Shown here in pieces: positions 44,197 to 51,904 of a DNA stretch of 64,000 bases. The notes under the pieces were generated by a model that was not told where the DNA came from, made no database searches, and worked only from the letters and a program-made list of their open reading frames with translations. Location of the stretch: the NCBI GenBank assembly GCA_000991245.1, contig LBRD01000005.1, positions 10,944-74,943 on the forward strand. The letters run 5' to 3'. Positions within the stretch are counted from its first letter, which is position 1. Each line of letters starts with the position of its first letter. The stretch is from Parcubacteria group bacterium GW2011_GWC1_36_108 (GTDB taxonomy: Bacteria; Patescibacteriota; Minisyncoccia; Moranbacterales; GWC2-37-73). The position numbers were made by a program, and so were the translations under genes.

Positions 44197-45003
44197 GTGG
44201 AAAATTATTCACAATTAGACATTAGCGTATTCGAACCGTTAGAAAGAAAGTGGTTATGCATCAACCCATGGTGGCGCCGTACGATACGATTGTTTATTTC
44301 AATGATTTTATCTTTTCTTGTTTTCACTGTACCCATGCTATTTTTTATTGAGATAAAACAACATGCATTGCTTTTTTTAACACAATTTATATTGGGAACA
44401 ATTGCATTCTACATCGTTTCAATTCTACTAACAGCAGTTGCAAGAAATCGCAGAACCCTCGCAACATTGTACATAAAACTGAAGGATTTTTCCCTTCGAG
44501 ATTCCTTGACGGGGTTATACAATGACAGAAAGTTCATGACTGAAAAACTGGAATGCATGTCAACGTATGCGAAAGCAAACAATGAATCTGTAGCGATTTT
44601 TTTTGCTGATCTCGATGACCTCAAAGAAATAAACGACAATTACTCGCATCTAGCGGGTGACAGTGCTATCGTAGCAACAGCAAAACGCATGGGCAATGCA
44701 TTTAGGGATAATGATTTCTTGTTTCGCTTCGGAGGAGATGAATTTTTTGCTATAACATTATTAAAAAACACCCCCGAAAACGAGGCGGAGGAAGAAGTAG
44801 CAAAAATTACTCAGAGAATAACGGATTCTGTAAGTACAAAACCAGTGCGTTATGGTGAAGACAAGATACTGTTATCAATTTCCATTGGCGCACACATCCT
44901 AAATCCCGAAAACACAATTGGGAGAGAACTTTTAATTGTAGACAAAAAAATGTACGCAATCAAAAAAGATAGGAAGCTAGGAGGAAAAGCAACAAGAAAG
45001 TAA
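44197..45003 (+). CDS. membrane-anchored GGDEF-domain diguanylate cyclase
   Basis: GTG start with AAGGAGG SD; two or three N-terminal TM helices; RFGGDEF active-site motif. Confidence 0.8.
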   Translation: MENYSQLDISVFEPLERKWLCINPWWRRTIRLFISMILSFLVFTVPMLFFIEIKQHALLFLTQFILGTIAFYIVSILLTAVARNRRTLATLYIKLKDFSLRDSLTGLYNDRKFMTEKLECMSTYAKANNESVAIFFADLDDLKEINDNYSHLAGDSAIVATAKRMGNAFRDNDFLFRFGGDEFFAITLLKNTPENEAEEEVAKITQRITDSVSTKPVRYGEDKILLSISIGAHILNPENTIGRELLIVDKKMYAIKKDRKLGGKATRK

Positions 45004-45067: not shown

Positions 45068-45340
45068 CTATAAAAGTCCTAGTCTTTTCTTGGCTTCAAA
45101 TATTTGATGATCATTCATTTGACCAGACTTTTTCATTTGCTCAAGAGTTTTGAGAATGTCAGCTTTGTTTTTTTGAATATTATCCGGAGTCATTACCTTT
45201 TTCATTAAGGCTTCCCTTTCACTTGGACTCATTTTTTCCAATTTTTTCATCGCCATCCTTTGCATAAATCCCATATTTTCAGGATCCATAGGATTAGCAT
45301 TTTTATCTTTTTTCTTTTTGAAAGCATCTAAAATACCCAT
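45068..45340 (-). CDS. small Lys/Met-rich hypothetical protein (90 aa)
   Basis: ORF only. Confidence 0.35.
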   Translation of the reverse strand: MGILDAFKKKKDKNANPMDPENMGFMQRMAMKKLEKMSPSEREALMKKVMTPDNIQKNKADILKTLEQMKKSGQMNDHQIFEAKKRLGLL

Positions 45341-45407: not shown

Positions 45408-46310
45408 TTACTTCTTGTATTTAAGTGTTAATTCATAACTTGTTACCAACAGCGCGGTTGCGATAAAAACTGAAGAATACGTTCCGAAAGTAACTCCAAC
45501 CAAAAGCGCCAGTGCAAAAAACTTGATTGATGCTCCACCAAACAAATATATCGCCAACAAAGTTATGATCACAGTAAGAGAAGTGTTGATTGAACGCACA
45601 AGTGTTTCATTTAAACTTTGATTGACCACTTCTGGAAATGGAACTTTCTGTGAACTTTTAAGCAAATTTTCTCGCGTTCGGTCATATACCACGATGGTGT
45701 CGTGAACAGAAAAACCAAGAATTGTAAGCAGCGCTGCAATAAAAGGAATACCGATTTCAACTCCATAAAAATGTCCGAGCACTGAGAAAACTCCCATTGT
45801 AATCAAGATGTCATGAGAAAGTGCAATTACTGCACCTGCACCATATTTCCAAGATTCAACTGGACGAGACACTTTGCGAAAAGCCCAAGCAATATATGCC
45901 ATAATGGCCATAATTGCCAATAACAGGGCGTTTACTGATTTTGATTTTAATTCGCCAGAAACTGAAGAGTTGAAAAAATCAACACTGGATTGAGTAGCAC
46001 CGGAATATTTCTCACTAATTTTTCCCCAAACATCACTGTTTGTTTTGTCATCTTCAGAAGCATAGCGGATTACCATTGAATTATTTTCTAATCCCTGCAA
46101 GGCTAAACTTTTTAACTCCAAATCCTTAAGTGTTTCCGTAACATCCTCCTTGGAAGGAACTTGCTCGGCAAATTTAACCACCATTCGGGTTCCACCAGTA
46201 AAATCAATGTCATATTTCAACCCCCAAACTGCCAAGCTTAAAATACACAGGACAGTTAGAATGCCAGAGAAGATATAGGCGTATTTGGTTTTTCCAATAA
46301 TATTAAACAT
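45408..46310 (-). CDS. secF: protein translocase subunit SecF
   Basis: 300 aa; six TM segments; SecF signature. Confidence 0.9.
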   Translation of the reverse strand: MFNIIGKTKYAYIFSGILTVLCILSLAVWGLKYDIDFTGGTRMVVKFAEQVPSKEDVTETLKDLELKSLALQGLENNSMVIRYASEDDKTNSDVWGKISEKYSGATQSSVDFFNSSVSGELKSKSVNALLLAIMAIMAYIAWAFRKVSRPVESWKYGAGAVIALSHDILITMGVFSVLGHFYGVEIGIPFIAALLTILGFSVHDTIVVYDRTRENLLKSSQKVPFPEVVNQSLNETLVRSINTSLTVIITLLAIYLFGGASIKFFALALLVGVTFGTYSSVFIATALLVTSYELTLKYKK

Positions 46311-46423: not shown

Positions 46424-48097
46424 TTAATCCAATATATCAGATTTTTTTACTCCTACCATCCACATTCTATTATGGATCCAGTCACTAATGATAACTTTAA
46501 GCATTGTTCTGGTAATTATCACAGCAGTAAACATTGAAACCACAACTCCAATAAAAAGTGCGGCTGCAAAACCTTTCACAAAACCCGTACCCATAAGATA
46601 CAAAATTCCAGCGGTCAGCAAGGATGAAATGTTGCCGTCGCGAATTGATGTCCAAGCACGTTTGAATCCTTCTTCAAGTGAATTCGCAATCGTTCTTCCA
46701 CCACGTATTTCTTCTTTGGTTCTTTCAAAAATCAAAATATTAGCATCGACCGCCATACCAATTGAAAGCACGAATCCTGCAATACCGGAAAGTGTCAGGG
46801 TAATTCCTGTCATTTTGAAAATAGTTATCATCACTGCAGTATAAATAAGCAAAGCTAATGATGCGACAAGTCCTAGGAAGCGATAGAAGATAAGCATAAA
46901 AACAACAACTGCTCCGAGGCCTATTGCTCCAGCAATCAAAATACTTCTAAGCGAATCTGCTCCAAGAGTTGCTTCAACGCTTTGTTGACCAACCAATGTC
47001 AAAGGAACTGGCAGCGCACCTTGATTTAATCTGTCAGAAATATCCTTGGCTTCTTTGAATGTGTAATTTCCTGTAATCACCGCTTGCCCGTTTGTGATTT
47101 CAACTTGAACGGTTGGTGCTATCTGCAATTGTCCATCCAAGAAAATTGCGATTTCTTTTCCTAGATTTTTTTTGGTTAGTTCTGCGAAAAGCTTTGTGCC
47201 TTCTTCGTCAAATTGAAGAGAAACTTCCGGTTCTCCAAGACCTTGCCCGTTTGAATATTGCGCTGTTGCACTTTTTAAGTTTTTTCCGGTAAGCGCCGTT
47301 GTTTGATATTTGAACTGTTCATATTGAGAAGGATCTTTTTTTGCAAAAAGAATGTGCGCACCATGAACTTCCAAATTTTCTCCTTCCCCACGAGATTCAA
47401 TAAATTTAATAATGTGCCAACCATATTGAGATTCCACCAAATCAGGATAAATTTCTCCTGATTTCAAATTGCTTTCGAATAGAATCTTATCAAATTCTGG
47501 CACAAAAGCACCTTTTTTCACGAAATCCAAATCTCCGCCCTTATCCTTGGAGCCGGGATCTTCACTATTATCCTTGGCAAGCTGAGCAAAATCTCCACCA
47601 TTTTTGACTTCATCGAAAATTTTCTGTGCTTTTTCTTTTGCCTGCGTGTTCATCTGATCAAACATTTGTTGAACTTGCGGATCGACAGGACCTTCTTCTT
47701 TAAATTCCAATAACGGAGCGTCTTTAATTTTAGCCTTAGCTTCTTCAATATCTTTAATACCGGGAAGTTCAACAATGATACGATTTTCTCCACTGCTCTT
47801 GGCAATTTGCACCAATGGCTCCCCCACACCAAAAGCATTCACGCGTCTTTCAATGACAGTCTGCGCGCCCTCCATTGCTTCTGCCACTTTTGATGGATCA
47901 ATATTCGAAACATCCGCTTTATATTCCAAATGAAATCCTCCTTGCAAATCAAGTCCCAATTTCAATTTAAACTTATTCAGTGCGTCATAAAGTGGCGTTA
48001 TTTTTGAAACTGCCTGTGGATATGCAACAAGACCAGCAACCACTGCCAAAACGATTACCCCAGCAAATTTCAATTGTAATTTTTTCTTTATATTCAT
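46424..48097 (-). CDS. secD: protein translocase subunit SecD carrying an embedded parvulin-type PPIase domain in the periplasmic P1 region
   Basis: LGLDLQGG and RRVNAFGVGEPLVQ (P1 base); then NGGDFAQLAKDNSEDPGSKDKGGDLDFVKKGAFVPEFDKILF...SQYGWHIIKF (matching PpiC [27 protein letters not shown]...TQFGYHIIKV); then the P1 base resumes (EPEVSLQFDEEGTKLFAELTKKNLGKEIAIFLDG) and six TM helices. Confidence 0.88.
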   Translation of the reverse strand: MNIKKKLQLKFAGVIVLAVVAGLVAYPQAVSKITPLYDALNKFKLKLGLDLQGGFHLEYKADVSNIDPSKVAEAMEGAQTVIERRVNAFGVGEPLVQIAKSSGENRIIVELPGIKDIEEAKAKIKDAPLLEFKEEGPVDPQVQQMFDQMNTQAKEKAQKIFDEVKNGGDFAQLAKDNSEDPGSKDKGGDLDFVKKGAFVPEFDKILFESNLKSGEIYPDLVESQYGWHIIKFIESRGEGENLEVHGAHILFAKKDPSQYEQFKYQTTALTGKNLKSATAQYSNGQGLGEPEVSLQFDEEGTKLFAELTKKNLGKEIAIFLDGQLQIAPTVQVEITNGQAVITGNYTFKEAKDISDRLNQGALPVPLTLVGQQSVEATLGADSLRSILIAGAIGLGAVVVFMLIFYRFLGLVASLALLIYTAVMITIFKMTGITLTLSGIAGFVLSIGMAVDANILIFERTKEEIRGGRTIANSLEEGFKRAWTSIRDGNISSLLTAGILYLMGTGFVKGFAAALFIGVVVSMFTAVIITRTMLKVIISDWIHNRMWMVGVKKSDILD

Positions 48098-48192: not shown

Positions 48193-48666
48193 CTACGCAG
48201 ACAACTGCTCTGACAACTGCCTTATGTTGTACAGCCTAACTTCGGATGGAAAGTTGATAAATTTAATCCTGTGACGTAATTGCAACTCATCAACATACCA
48301 TTTTTCCAGCATTATGCCGAGAGCTTCGCCCATCTCAGAAAAACTCATCTTGGAGATATTGTAATGCAGAGCATCGCAATATGCAAGATGGCACGAAACA
48401 ACTTTTCGAACTCTCTCGATTTCAGTTATCTCATCTCCAACCTTCTTGAAAAACTTACGCCTGAATAAATTCCTGCGAATCCATTCCAGCAAATAAGAAC
48501 ACGGGACCTTCCAGGGTAAAGGAACATTATTCAACTCCTGACACACCTTAAGCAATGTTGTCTCCTCTTTTGCCATTCGATCTAAAGCTTCTTTACTCTC
48601 ATTAATAAGAAGTTTAAATAGATCTTCAAGTTGATTTTTACGCACTTGCACTTCATTTTGCAGCAT
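48193..48666 (-). CDS. hypothetical protein; stand-alone unit with a strong SD and its own terminator, GC-richer
   Basis: 157 aa; GGGAGG 4 nt upstream of ATG. Confidence 0.55.
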   Translation of the reverse strand: MLQNEVQVRKNQLEDLFKLLINESKEALDRMAKEETTLLKVCQELNNVPLPWKVPCSYLLEWIRRNLFRRKFFKKVGDEITEIERVRKVVSCHLAYCDALHYNISKMSFSEMGEALGIMLEKWYVDELQLRHRIKFINFPSEVRLYNIRQLSEQLSA

Positions 48667-48788: not shown

Positions 48789-49253
48789 TTAATTATCTTG
48801 TTTTAATGCAACTGCAACTTCTTTGATAACTGTTCTTGAGCCGTCATTACTAAGACGCTCAAGAACTTCTCGATATGTCAGCCAGGCGTAAGCTTTGTTT
48901 TCAAAATCAATTTTTACTTTTTCCGTTTGCGTTTCAGCGGCATAATATACGGCGTTTTTAAAAATATAAATTCCTTTGTTTTGTAAAATTCTTTCTTTTT
49001 TCTCATTACCTTTAGCGGTATAAAAATAATGCACGGATTCGCGAAAATTAGGCAAAATTTCAAGGTCATCAATGCTCGTTTCCTCAAAAACCTCACGTCT
49101 GAGTGTTTGCTCTTCGCTTTCACCATTTTCCATATGCCCTTTTGGAAAATCCCATTGCCAGCTGCGGTATTGCACCAAGAGAAACAAGGTTTTATCCTCG
49201 CTTTTTCTATATATAACGCATCCTACTGATTTTTCAAATGATAAATATTTCAT
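48789..49253 (-). CDS. NUDIX hydrolase
   Basis: Nudix box GHMENGESEEQTLRREVFEETSI; start placed at MKYLSF just past the secA stop. Confidence 0.78.
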   Translation of the reverse strand: MKYLSFEKSVGCVIYRKSEDKTLFLLVQYRSWQWDFPKGHMENGESEEQTLRREVFEETSIDDLEILPNFRESVHYFYTAKGNEKKERILQNKGIYIFKNAVYYAAETQTEKVKIDFENKAYAWLTYREVLERLSNDGSRTVIKEVAVALKQDN

Positions 49254-49255
49254 TT

Positions 49256-51904
49256 TTATTTTCCACAACAGTTTTTGTATTTTTTGCCGCTTCCACATAA
49301 ACATAGGTCATTTCTGCCGATATTATCCTTTTTGACAAATGGCTTCTGCGCTGCAGCAGCTTCATTGTTGCCAACTTGTTCTTTTGCAGTCTCATTGCTA
49401 AATTGAGCAGGACTATCCTCGGCTCCGTGAAATTGAATATTTTTGGGTGCAGCTTCTTTTTGGACTGAAGGCTCAGCTGAAACCATTGAGACCTTGAAAA
49501 TTGTTCGCACGGTTGTCGAACGCATATTTTCCATCAAATGAGAAAACATATGAAAAGCTTCTCTTTTGTATTCAATAAGAGGGTCGCGTTGTCCATATCC
49601 ACGAAGTCCAATTCCTTGACGCAAATAATCAATTTCATCAAGATGATTCATCCAAAGCGTGTCTATGGTTTGCAAAATAATTGCCTTTTCAATTTGTCTT
49701 AAAGTTTGCGCACCAATCTCTGTTTCCTTTTGGATATATACTTCCTTGGCTTTTCCCATGACATATTCCATCATCAAGGAAATTTTTTCCACAGTGTTTT
49801 TAGATTTGTCATCCCTAATTTGTTCAAGTTTTTTACTGTCATTTTCAGAAAAGGGAAAAATGTTTTGCAATTCGTTTGTGATAGTTTTAATATCCCAAGC
49901 ATATTCTTCTCCGGTGCAGTGCACCGAAATATTACGTTCAACCTCCTCTTCAACATATTGCATAATTTCAGCTTTCACATCATCCGAGGCTAAAATTTCT
50001 TTACGTTTTTTATATACAACTTCACGCTGTTTATTCATCACATCGTCATAATCTAAAACATGTTTTCGAATATCAAAATTGTAACCCTCAATTTTAGATT
50101 GAGCACTTTCAATGGTGCGAGAAATAATAGCATTTTGAATCGGCTGATCTTCTGGCAATCCAAGAGTGTCCATCATACTTTTAAGCCTATCCCCTCCAAA
50201 TCTTCGCATCAACTCATCTTCCAATGACACATAGAATTGTGATGCTCCCGGATCTCCTTGACGACCAGCTCGTCCTCGAAGTTGATTATCGATGCGGCGT
50301 GCTTCATGTCTTTCTGTACCGATAATATAAAGTCCTCCAACTTCTTTAACTCCTTCTCCAAGTTTAATATCAGTTCCACGACCAGCCATGTTTGTTGCAA
50401 TAGTCACCGCGCCAAGTTGTCCAGCGCCTGCAATAATAGCTGCTTCTCTTTCGTGATGTTTAGCATTTAAAACTTCATGCTTTATTCCTTCACGTTCAAG
50501 CAGCGCACTAAGATATTCCGATTTTTCAATAGCAATAGTTCCAACCAAAAATGGCTGACCTTTTTTATGATTTTCTTTGATAAGTTGAGCAATCGCATCA
50601 AATTTTCCCTTTTCAGTTTTATAAACGACATCAGGCAAATCTTTTCTAATCAAAGTTTTGTTTGTTGGAATTTCCATCACATCAATTTTGTAAACTTTTG
50701 CAAATTCTTCAGCACTGGTTGATGCTGTTCCTGTCATTCCGGCCAGCTTTTTATACATTCTGAAATAATTTTGAAAAGTGATTGTCGCCAAGGTGCGAGA
50801 TTCTTTTTGAACTTCAACGCCTTCTTTCGCTTCAATTGCTTGATGAAGACCATCGCTATAACGACGTCCCTCCATAAGTCGTCCTGTAAAATCATCAACA
50901 ATAATAACCTGTCCGTCTTTTACGACATATTCCTTATCAAGTTTAAACAAAACTTCAGCGCGCAGTGATTGCTCCAAATGATGAACGTAATTTATTTTTC
51001 CAAGTTCATAAATGTTGCCAACTCCAAGATCTTTTTCAACTTTTGCAATTCCATTTTCCGTCAGCGTCACGGCTTTCATTTTTTCATCCACTTCATAATC
51101 TTCTTTTTCCCTAAGACGTGGAACAAGTTGAGCAAAGCGTTGATATAATTTTGTTGATTCGCTGTCTGGAGCTGAAATAATAAGCGGGGTGCGAGCCTCA
51201 TCAATCAAAATTGAATCGACTTCATCAACAATAGCGTAATTAAGTTCTCTTTGTGACATTTGCTCCAAACTTTGCACCATATTGTCACGAAGATAATCAA
51301 AACCAAATTCATTGTTTGTTCCATAGGTAATATCACAGGCATAAGCCTCACGCCTGGTTATTTCAATCAAATTTTCCATCTCCACGCTCACTTCGTCGCC
51401 ATCAAAAACTTGCGGTTCATACAAATATGAAACGTCATGCATAATGCACGCAGTTGAAAGTCCAAGAGCGTTATAAATCGAACCCATCCAATTGCAATCG
51501 CGCTTAGCCAGATAATCATTCACTGTCACGACGTGCACACCTTTTCCTTCAATAGCATTAAGATAAATTGGCAAAGTTGATGTTAAAGTTTTTCCTTCGC
51601 CAGTTTTCATTTCCGTTATCGTTCCTTTGTGAAGAGCAATCCCGCCAATCATCTGCACGTCAAAATGTCTCGTTCCGTTTACACGCTTGGCAACTTCTCG
51701 CACCACCGCAAAAGCCTCTGGCAAAATTTCATCGAGGGTTTCTCCTTTGGAAACTCTCTCTTTAAATTCCTTGGCTTTTCCTTTCAAATCTTCATCAGAA
51801 AGAGCAATCATTTTTTCTTCAAAGGAATTGATTTTTGTTACGATCGGTTTAAGTTTATTTATCTCCCGTTCATTTGAACCGAATATTTTGCTGAATAATG
51901 TCAT
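49256..51904 (-). CDS. secA: preprotein translocase ATPase SecA
   Basis: 882 aa; DEAD-like motor; C-terminal zinc-binding CLCGSGKKYKNCCG. Confidence 0.96.
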   Translation of the reverse strand: MTLFSKIFGSNEREINKLKPIVTKINSFEEKMIALSDEDLKGKAKEFKERVSKGETLDEILPEAFAVVREVAKRVNGTRHFDVQMIGGIALHKGTITEMKTGEGKTLTSTLPIYLNAIEGKGVHVVTVNDYLAKRDCNWMGSIYNALGLSTACIMHDVSYLYEPQVFDGDEVSVEMENLIEITRREAYACDITYGTNNEFGFDYLRDNMVQSLEQMSQRELNYAIVDEVDSILIDEARTPLIISAPDSESTKLYQRFAQLVPRLREKEDYEVDEKMKAVTLTENGIAKVEKDLGVGNIYELGKINYVHHLEQSLRAEVLFKLDKEYVVKDGQVIIVDDFTGRLMEGRRYSDGLHQAIEAKEGVEVQKESRTLATITFQNYFRMYKKLAGMTGTASTSAEEFAKVYKIDVMEIPTNKTLIRKDLPDVVYKTEKGKFDAIAQLIKENHKKGQPFLVGTIAIEKSEYLSALLEREGIKHEVLNAKHHEREAAIIAGAGQLGAVTIATNMAGRGTDIKLGEGVKEVGGLYIIGTERHEARRIDNQLRGRAGRQGDPGASQFYVSLEDELMRRFGGDRLKSMMDTLGLPEDQPIQNAIISRTIESAQSKIEGYNFDIRKHVLDYDDVMNKQREVVYKKRKEILASDDVKAEIMQYVEEEVERNISVHCTGEEYAWDIKTITNELQNIFPFSENDSKKLEQIRDDKSKNTVEKISLMMEYVMGKAKEVYIQKETEIGAQTLRQIEKAIILQTIDTLWMNHLDEIDYLRQGIGLRGYGQRDPLIEYKREAFHMFSHLMENMRSTTVRTIFKVSMVSAEPSVQKEAAPKNIQFHGAEDSPAQFSNETAKEQVGNNEAAAAQKPFVKKDNIGRNDLCLCGSGKKYKNCCGK

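Follow-up and report, generated by a model that had tools for sequence, protein, structure and literature searches.

Evidence for a circularly permuted parvulin domain within the P1 domain of SecD in Patescibacteria

Introduction

SecDF is proposed to pull the emerging chain by repeated conformational transitions, and its P1 head, the orientation of which differs between crystallised forms, has an amphiphilic cavity (PMC5974789). Parvulin-containing folding helpers have been connected to this part of the export machinery: PpiD contacts SecD's periplasmic domain and cooperates with SecD/F (PMC9643414), the parvulin domains of SurA are predicted to bind the SecDF P1 head (PMC9987972), and the parvulin lipoprotein Mpn444 cross-links to SecD (bioRxiv 10.1101/2024.09.05.611430). 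For E. coli, Vibrio and Mycoplasma, the hand-over of unfolded chains from SecYEG to folding helpers is still debated on the basis of cross-links and AlphaFold models. Here we describe a secD gene in a 64-kb stretch of DNA (the window, meaning the whole of the DNA analysed) from a Moranbacteria genome belonging to the Patescibacteria, or candidate phyla radiation (CPR). This gene encodes a SecD of 557 amino acids (aa) that carries a parvulin domain within its P1 domain. The fusion is real and conserved, and through it a folding helper that usually exists as a protein of its own is attached to the export motor. We found no description of a SecD-parvulin fusion or of a permuted parvulin in open-access papers and preprints, and the fusion sequences in public databases are annotated simply as SecD.

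Results

A parvulin domain lies between the P1 base and the P1 head

The original prediction, made on the region 47227-47707 of the reverse strand (aa 131-291 of SecD), placed a parvulin-type peptidyl-prolyl isomerase (PPIase) domain inside the periplasmic P1 domain. We scanned the whole 557-aa protein with Pfam, applied NCBIfam models at their curated cut-offs and aligned the protein to T. thermophilus SecDF, and the three approaches bore out this placement. Both parvulin families of Pfam matched above their thresholds and far beyond chance: Rotamase_3 covers aa 148-235 with 85.8 bits against a cut-off of 22.5 (E = 4.2e-24), and Rotamase covers aa 148-233 with 75.0 bits against a cut-off of 21.7. 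The order of domains is SecD_1st (aa 75-134), Rotamase_3, SecDF_P1_head (aa 262-364) and SecD_SecF_C (aa 372-536). The gene and the elements around the insertion are as follows.

46424..48097, reverse strand: secD coding sequence, 557 aa, stop codon included, from the list of open reading frames (ORFs)
47693..47974, reverse strand: GG motif and N-terminal half of the P1 base (aa 42-135), ending LEFKEE, from Pfam Sec_GG and SecD_1st
47390..47680, reverse strand: parvulin core from helix α1 to strand β4 (aa 140-236), without the N-terminal β1
47339..47374, reverse strand: relocated strand β1' (aa 242-253, LEVHGAHILFAK) carrying His248, from the β1 matrix, colinearity with the tandem-parvulin protein P0123 and an AlphaFold2 strand at 243-252
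47006..47314, reverse strand: P1 head subdomain, complete (aa 262-364), from Pfam SecDF_P1_head and alignment to T. thermophilus SecDF from residue 159

In the alignment to T. thermophilus SecDF (3AQP), aa 43-146 correspond to residues 31-131 and aa 268-549 to residues 159-439. The P1-base strand LEF[KR] ends at residue 116 in T. thermophilus, 289 in E. coli and 127 in D. radiodurans, and the P1 head starts at residues 159, 323 and 156, respectively. The connector from base to head thus measures 43, 33 and 28 aa in these proteins and 134 aa here (aa 133 to 268). Judged by connector length, the net gain over the three solved SecD proteins is about 95-105 aa, which is smaller than the insertion of about 150 aa originally proposed. 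E. coli SecD has a large extra sequence in P1, which was considered as an occupant of the same site and ruled out, as the distance from LEFR (289) to the head (323) is only 33 aa.

The insert sits between the P1-base strand LEFK (aa 130-133) and the first strand of the P1 head (aa 264-270), and the linkers that flank the parvulin are short, about 4-6 and 7-11 residues. The downstream flank LGEPEVSLQFDEEGTKLFAELTK (LGEPEVSLQFDEEG...), first read as part of the P1 base, belongs to the P1 head. The head profile SecDF_P1_head (PF22599) scores 96.1 bits and is matched from position 14 to position 114 of 114. Considering that the head is complete, the parvulin is an addition to it and not a substitute, so that of the two options raised in the original prediction only augmentation stands. 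The Pfam scan detected no SurA_N or related family in the 557-aa protein at E values up to 1.

The first strand of the parvulin follows the last

In canonical parvulins, the order of elements is β1, three helices, β2, a helix, β3 and β4, and β4 is flanked by β3 and β1. The SecD insert departs from this order. The Rotamase_3 match begins at profile position 31 of 116, indicating that β1 with its catalytic His is missing before α1, and β4 (YGWHIIKFIES) is directly followed by GEGENLEVHGAHILFAKKD, which holds a conserved EVHxxHIL strand. To locate β1, we constructed a 12-column scoring matrix from 39 canonical parvulin domains of non-SecD proteins and scanned it over whole proteins. The best match fell just downstream of β4 in 125 of 130 SecD-parvulin proteins, with a mean of 14.4 bits for the 130 fusions against 2.8 ± 2.7 bits for shuffled sequences. 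In the 557-aa SecD itself, the best match was LEVHGAHILFAK at aa 242 (10.3 bits, P = 0.015); the next-best score anywhere in the protein was -2.5 bits, and nothing resembling β1 was present before α1.

Alignments to other parvulins gave the same picture. A BLASTP alignment with the tandem-parvulin protein P0123 ran unbroken from α1 of repeat 1 through β4 and into QVHARHILIDFKD, which is β1 of repeat 2, and left a 17-aa gap exactly at the first β1 of P0123. When the canonical consensus was doubled, the native insert crossed the junction between the two copies (query 19-125 to subject 16-118) and scored 87.8 bits compared with 82.0 bits for a single copy. With its tail moved to the front, the insert aligned end to end with SurA P2, its best sequence match (1M5Y residues 264-365; EVHGAHILF versus EVHARHILL), and the re-ordered insert aligned with PrsA and SurA P2 single-domain structures at 5-10 bits above the native order.

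AlphaFold2 predicted the insert alone with a predicted local distance difference test (pLDDT) score of 93.7 and a predicted template modelling (pTM) score of 0.86, and the predicted insert has the three-dimensional fold of a parvulin. Its elements, in insert numbering, are helices 7-32, 37-44, 48-51 and 67-75 and strands 56-61, 88-90, 93-103 and 110-119. In a hairpin with pLDDT of 95-98, β4 (aa 226-236) is joined to the tail (aa 243-252), and confidence in the full-length model is highest for the same parvulin elements. Given this hairpin and the neighbours of β4 in the canonical fold, β1' should fill the central β1 slot. There is strong support for an arrangement in which the strand following β4 would fold back into that slot and bring His248 next to His228.

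We judged the permutation by the location of the matrix match, the doubled consensus and the alignments to solved parvulins, as rescoring with hidden Markov models (HMMs) was too weak to decide. Since the canonical strand order is absent, the insert is a circular permutant and not a canonical parvulin, and the possibility of permutation raised in the original prediction is supported by the matrix, the colinearity with P0123, the re-ordering, the doubled consensus and the AlphaFold2 model.

The active-site residues are conserved

The residues of a parvulin catalytic site could be assigned by alignment.

47558..47560, reverse strand: Asp180, equivalent to Pin1 Cys113 and Par10 Cys40, from alignment of the SEDPGSK..GGDL motif
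47414..47416, reverse strand: His228 in β4 (GWHIIK), equivalent to Pin1 His157
47354..47356, reverse strand: His248 in β1' (AHILF), equivalent to Pin1 His59; once the insert is re-ordered, His248 falls on the SurA P2 strand EVHARHIL

PrsA-type parvulins also have Asp at the position of Pin1 Cys113. The C113D variant of Pin1 is fully active (bioRxiv 10.1101/2024.09.05.611430). We counted conservation in an alignment of 120 close homologues with 64-100% identity. Asp180 was kept in all 120, His228 in 107 (with Glu in ten and Phe in three) and His248 in 115, and the three occurred together in 105. In the hydrophobic pocket, Leu190 and Phe207 were invariant and Phe202 was kept in 117 sequences. 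The motif EVHGAHILFAKKD, flagged at the outset as a possible first strand, proved real and conserved, with Ile249 in 119 and Leu250 in 114 of the homologues besides His248. The conservation of triad and pocket is the pattern expected of an enzyme site. By score, predicted fold and active site, the SecD insert is a true parvulin domain.

The fusion is a standard form of SecD in a large part of Patescibacteria

The 120 best homologues, the same set as above, all share the SecD-parvulin architecture. We further carried out an exhaustive HMMER search with aa 120-275 as query against 1.84 billion cluster representatives, and the best 150 clusters at 50% identity included 24 SecD fusions. Each fusion examined from this set runs from LEFKE through α1 to β4 and EVxAxHIL and then into the head. 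A profile built from distant fusions retrieved 120 further proteins, mostly of about 690 aa with two parvulin cores, and hundreds of homologous clusters have the same architecture. Among 80 loci listed from species-representative genomes, at least 38 are fusions, including those of Kerfeldbacteria, Uhrbacteria and Elulimicrobium, and the remaining loci are ordinary parvulin proteins of other phyla. Altogether, the fusion was seen in Moran-, Falkow-, Magasanik-, Kerfeld-, Uhr- and Buchananbacteria. The survey of CPR homologues therefore finds the same insertion across many patescibacterial lineages, and SecD-parvulin is a standard SecD architecture over a large part of Patescibacteria. The view that the arrangement is unusual holds with respect to model bacteria and the open-access literature and fails over a large part of this radiation.

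Metagenome-assembled genomes titled uncultured Bdellovibrionales or Gammaproteobacteria (L002, L005, L006, L007, L030, L042 and L050) also encode SecD-parvulin proteins. These are 56-80% identical to the SecD proteins of named Patescibacteria, which makes the taxonomic labels doubtful; judging from this identity, the labels are probably wrong.

The architecture has several variants. The SecD proteins of about 690 aa (P0268 and P0273-P0389; L070:2683-4758 from Magasanikiibacteriota), labelled Falkowbacteria, Magasanikiibacteriota, Parcubacteria or Patescibacteria, contain two parvulin cores in the order core (GYEI), β1 (KEVKASHLL), a CxxxxxxC loop with two conserved Cys, core (FGYHLIYK) and β1' (EYKVSHILI). 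The number of β1 strands equals the number of cores, and each β1 follows its core. Proteins of about 660 aa with two or three parvulin matches from about aa 140 were considered as SecDs with tandem inserts and rejected, as they are without SecD domains. The permuted parvulin is also present in a single-chain SecDF, P0242 (905 aa). A low-complexity, largely acidic loop of 45-60 aa lies between β4 and β1' in P0242 and in P0129 (619 aa), so the β4-β1' hairpin tolerates long insertions. In the case of the locus L081:232-4066 (Logan SRR25925502), a secD with a parvulin and secF are directly followed by the gene for a 367-aa lipoprotein with the lipobox LLSGC. This lipoprotein combines a P1-base-like region, the permuted parvulin known from SecD and a SecDF P1 head, without the membrane domain, and its family comprises 14 clusters of 351-373 aa (P0233, P0240 and P0390-P0401). 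The existence of this lipoprotein, with its gene placed after secD and secF, supports P1 plus parvulin as a functional unit in its own right. One source labels one member of the family as a parvulin-like PPIase.

These variants bear on the reading that the insert is a structural or regulatory module, one that tunes or gates the swing of the P1 head or docks SecDF to an envelope component without acting on translocating substrates. The exact position in the base-to-head connector, with short linkers on both sides, fits such a role, and the position of the connector region changes among the F, I and Super-F forms of SecDF (PMC5974789). However, a purely mechanical spacer would need no conserved parvulin active site, the lipoprotein family has P1 and parvulin without a membrane motor, which speaks for a function of its own, and long loops inside the domain are tolerated in two lineages. 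We regard this reading as quite improbable, and a purely mechanical role as unlikely.

The permuted order may derive from a tandem-parvulin gene

The SecD insert is colinear with the core of one repeat plus the β1 of the next repeat of tandem-parvulin proteins, at 37-44% identity. This colinearity, together with the two-parvulin form in which each β1 stands after its core, points to an out-of-register excerpt as the origin. In such a route, secD would have received a segment excised out of register from a tandem-parvulin gene, and each core would be completed by the strand that follows it, which would be the classic route of duplication and truncation to circular permutation. From sequence comparison, an out-of-register excerpt of a tandem-parvulin array is the most likely origin of the permutation, and tandem-parvulin proteins are the likely source of the SecD insert.

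The host protein is a complete housekeeping SecD

The window has a G+C content of about 36-38% throughout. The features outside the insertion are given below.

48017..48067, reverse strand: signal-anchor helix of SecD, the first transmembrane helix (TM1; aa 11-27, FAGVIVLAVVAGLVAYP), from AlphaFold2 helix 3-25 and homology to SecDF structures
46490..46984, reverse strand: membrane domain TM2-TM6 of SecD (aa 372-536), with the TM4 Asp D451 in GMAVDANILIFER, from Pfam SecD_SecF_C (PF02355)
45408..46310, reverse strand: secF, the SecD partner, directly downstream, from TIGR00966 at 273.3 bits against a cut-off of 160
49256..51904, reverse strand: secA, upstream in the same orientation, from Pfam SecA domain matches
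48789-49304, reverse strand: NUDIX gene between secA and secD, from a Pfam NUDIX match
48193-48666, reverse strand: 157-aa ORF between the NUDIX gene and secD, with no match in the Pfam scan

The host is a complete housekeeping SecD with secF adjoining. The NCBIfam model TIGR01129 (secD) spans aa 47-533 with 378.5 bits against a cut-off of 244.4, Sec_GG covers aa 42-62, and both SecD_1st (PF21760, aa 75-134) and the head profile PF22599 score above their cut-offs. The GG motif and P1-base half aligned with residues 31-116 of T. thermophilus SecDF. With P1 base and head, the membrane domain with its TM4 Asp and the SecF partner, the protein is a member of the SecD family in each feature examined. 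D451, in GMAVDANILIFER, aligned with T. thermophilus D340, which has an essential role (PMC5974789), and is invariant in the 120 homologues; on this alignment, the membrane motor looks intact. As TM1 is a signal anchor and the insert lies after it and within P1, the insert is placed outside the cytoplasm.

Such a fusion might in principle come from faulty assembly or gene calling, or from a gene in decay. We found no point in support of this explanation. The reading frame is continuous across the secD ORF (46424-48097, reverse strand), the protein is 100% identical in a database comparison to SecD of Candidatus Moranbacteria bacterium GW2011_GWC2_37_73, and the identical protein is on record for 18 contigs from several sources. 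Furthermore, the architecture recurs in the homologous clusters described above, and all functional motifs of SecD are intact. An artefact is therefore unlikely, to a degree that makes it barely conceivable.

The surrounding genes offer some further observations. The NUDIX ORF as listed overlaps the 3' end of secA by 49 nucleotides, and its true start may be an internal ATG. We considered the 157-aa ORF as an arrest peptide of the RAPP type and ruled it out, as it is without such a C-terminus and without a Pfam hit. A lysine-rich 90-aa ORF follows secF (45068-45340, reverse strand). Convergent to the secDF operon, 44197-45003 on the forward strand encodes a protein with a GGDEF diguanylate-cyclase domain and N-terminal hydrophobic segments, which is a little unexpected in a reduced CPR genome.

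Discussion

Proposed function

We consider it probable that the permuted parvulin in the base-to-head connector of SecD serves as a translocon-tethered foldase or holdase. Held by its short linkers at the junction of base and head on the extracytoplasmic side, the parvulin would bind unfolded secretory chains on their exit from SecYEG, as the P1 head captures them, and would catalyse Xaa-Pro isomerisation at the translocon exit. In this way, it would do in cis the work of PrsA, PpiD-YfgM, SurA and Mpn444, and in small genomes it may stand in for a separate PrsA, PpiD or SurA. We infer that folding catalysis is coupled to the translocon motor.

Several points weigh against this reading. Regarding the permutation, the re-ordered insert gained just 2.6 to 3.6 bits with the Pfam HMM and a mean of 2.5 bits with a local HMM of the 39 canonical domains, a gain equalled by 50 of 1500 shuffles; we attribute the small gains to α1, whose extra length of about 10 residues in the insert incurs a gap. 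The pairing of β1' with β4 and β2 is deduced from predicted secondary structure and topology, and the full-length AlphaFold2 model has a pTM of 0.50, too low to place the parvulin relative to the head, the base or SecY. Regarding the function, the isomerase activity, the substrate binding and the effect on secretion are predictions from sequence. The triad is degenerate in 15 of the 120 close homologues (DEH in ten; DFM, DFA, DHN and DHQ in the other five) with the domain kept, and the first core of the two-parvulin SecDs has GYEI instead of G[WY]HI, which together suggest that catalysis is not needed of every copy. Finally, no other parvulin was found within the 64 kb of the window, the stretch covered for separate PrsA-, PpiD- or SurA-type genes.

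The degenerate homologues, which come from Moranbacteria (P0033, P0090, P0096, P0100 and others), show GWEIIKF or GLFIIKF, and sometimes the HIL strand is changed to MIA. The KKPSxYG segment is altered in them too.

The degenerate copies favour the main rival explanation, in which the parvulin is a non-catalytic arm for substrate capture, a holdase that gives the P1 head a larger polypeptide-binding surface, with no part played by prolyl isomerisation. Such an arm would be comparable to the inactive parvulin domains of PpiD and SurA P1. Doubts have been noted about how much the parvulin domain matters for the function of PpiD (PMC9643414). Retention of the domain with a degenerate triad and the GYEI first cores are what this explanation would lead one to expect. 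On the other hand, Asp, His and His stand together in most homologues with an invariant or nearly invariant pocket, and the second core of the two-parvulin forms keeps FGYHLIYK and the SHILI strand. We find a purely non-catalytic arm doubtful, and the foldase or holdase tethered to the translocon remains the reading we prefer.

A bolder extension of the preferred reading makes SecDF a foldase that acts outside the cytoplasm and is coupled to energy. As the P1 head swings under proton drive, the parvulin cleft would travel to and from the SecY exit, and the proton-motive force would time capture, prolyl isomerisation and release in a compartment without ATP. If this were true, the fusion would be a 'Rosetta stone', telling us that docking of a parvulin chaperone (PpiD, SurA, PrsA or Mpn444) on SecD P1 is a general and ancient step of secretion, and no natural circular permutant of the parvulin fold would have been described before this insert. 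We offer this extension tentatively, as a speculation more likely to fail than to hold.

Significance

A parvulin fused to the chain-capturing domain of SecD throughout a large radiation is independent evolutionary evidence that the two work jointly, and the fusion provides a minimal single-polypeptide system for the coupling of translocation and folding. The permuted topology would be a natural example of a domain rebuilt from an out-of-register piece of a repeat array, and the two-parvulin, single-chain SecDF and membrane-domain-less lipoprotein variants form a series in which that evolution can be traced. Moreover, annotation as SecD alone hides a likely PPIase function, as predicted from sequence, in very small genomes.

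Comparison with known systems

Canonical SecDF proteins (T. thermophilus 3AQP/5YHF, D. radiodurans 5XAM/5XAN and E. coli SecD 5MG3) have in common with the 557-aa SecD the TM1 helix, the GG motif, the P1 base and head, TM2-6 with the TM4 Asp, and SecF, and they can be aligned to it over the full length outside the insert (also 3AQO). They differ in the connector between LEF[KR] and the head, which is 28-43 aa long in canonical SecDF, whereas here the 134-aa stretch contains a whole parvulin.

PrsA, the lipoprotein foldase of Bacillota (4WO7, 6XD8 and 1ZK6), is a dimeric lipoprotein in which a parvulin of canonical strand order lies inside an N/C chaperone domain. In contrast, the SecD insert has no SurA_N-type chaperone domain, its strand order is permuted, and it is carried by SecD, which is driven by protons. 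PpiD-YfgM and SurA of E. coli are likewise parvulin-containing chaperones at the translocon exit, but each is a polypeptide by itself with its own chaperone domains, and the association is only transient, whereas the SecD parvulin is covalent, with one per SecD and two in some lineages. Mpn444/Mpn436 of Mycoplasma pneumoniae resembles the present case as a surface parvulin PPIase from a reduced genome that cross-links to SecD (bioRxiv 10.1101/2024.09.05.611430). It differs in being a large trimeric lipoprotein, unfused to SecD and with no reported permutation. In tandem-parvulin proteins (P0123-like proteins of about 660 aa and the Bacteroidota SurA-like PPIase 8HM3/8HM4), each repeat has its own β1 before α1, and the SecD insert has none there.

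Taken all together, the insert is flanked by the SecD P1 base and head and carried by a polytopic SecD, and as it lacks a SurA_N-type domain it is not a chaperone of the PrsA/SurA/PpiD type in architecture, although it probably works like one.

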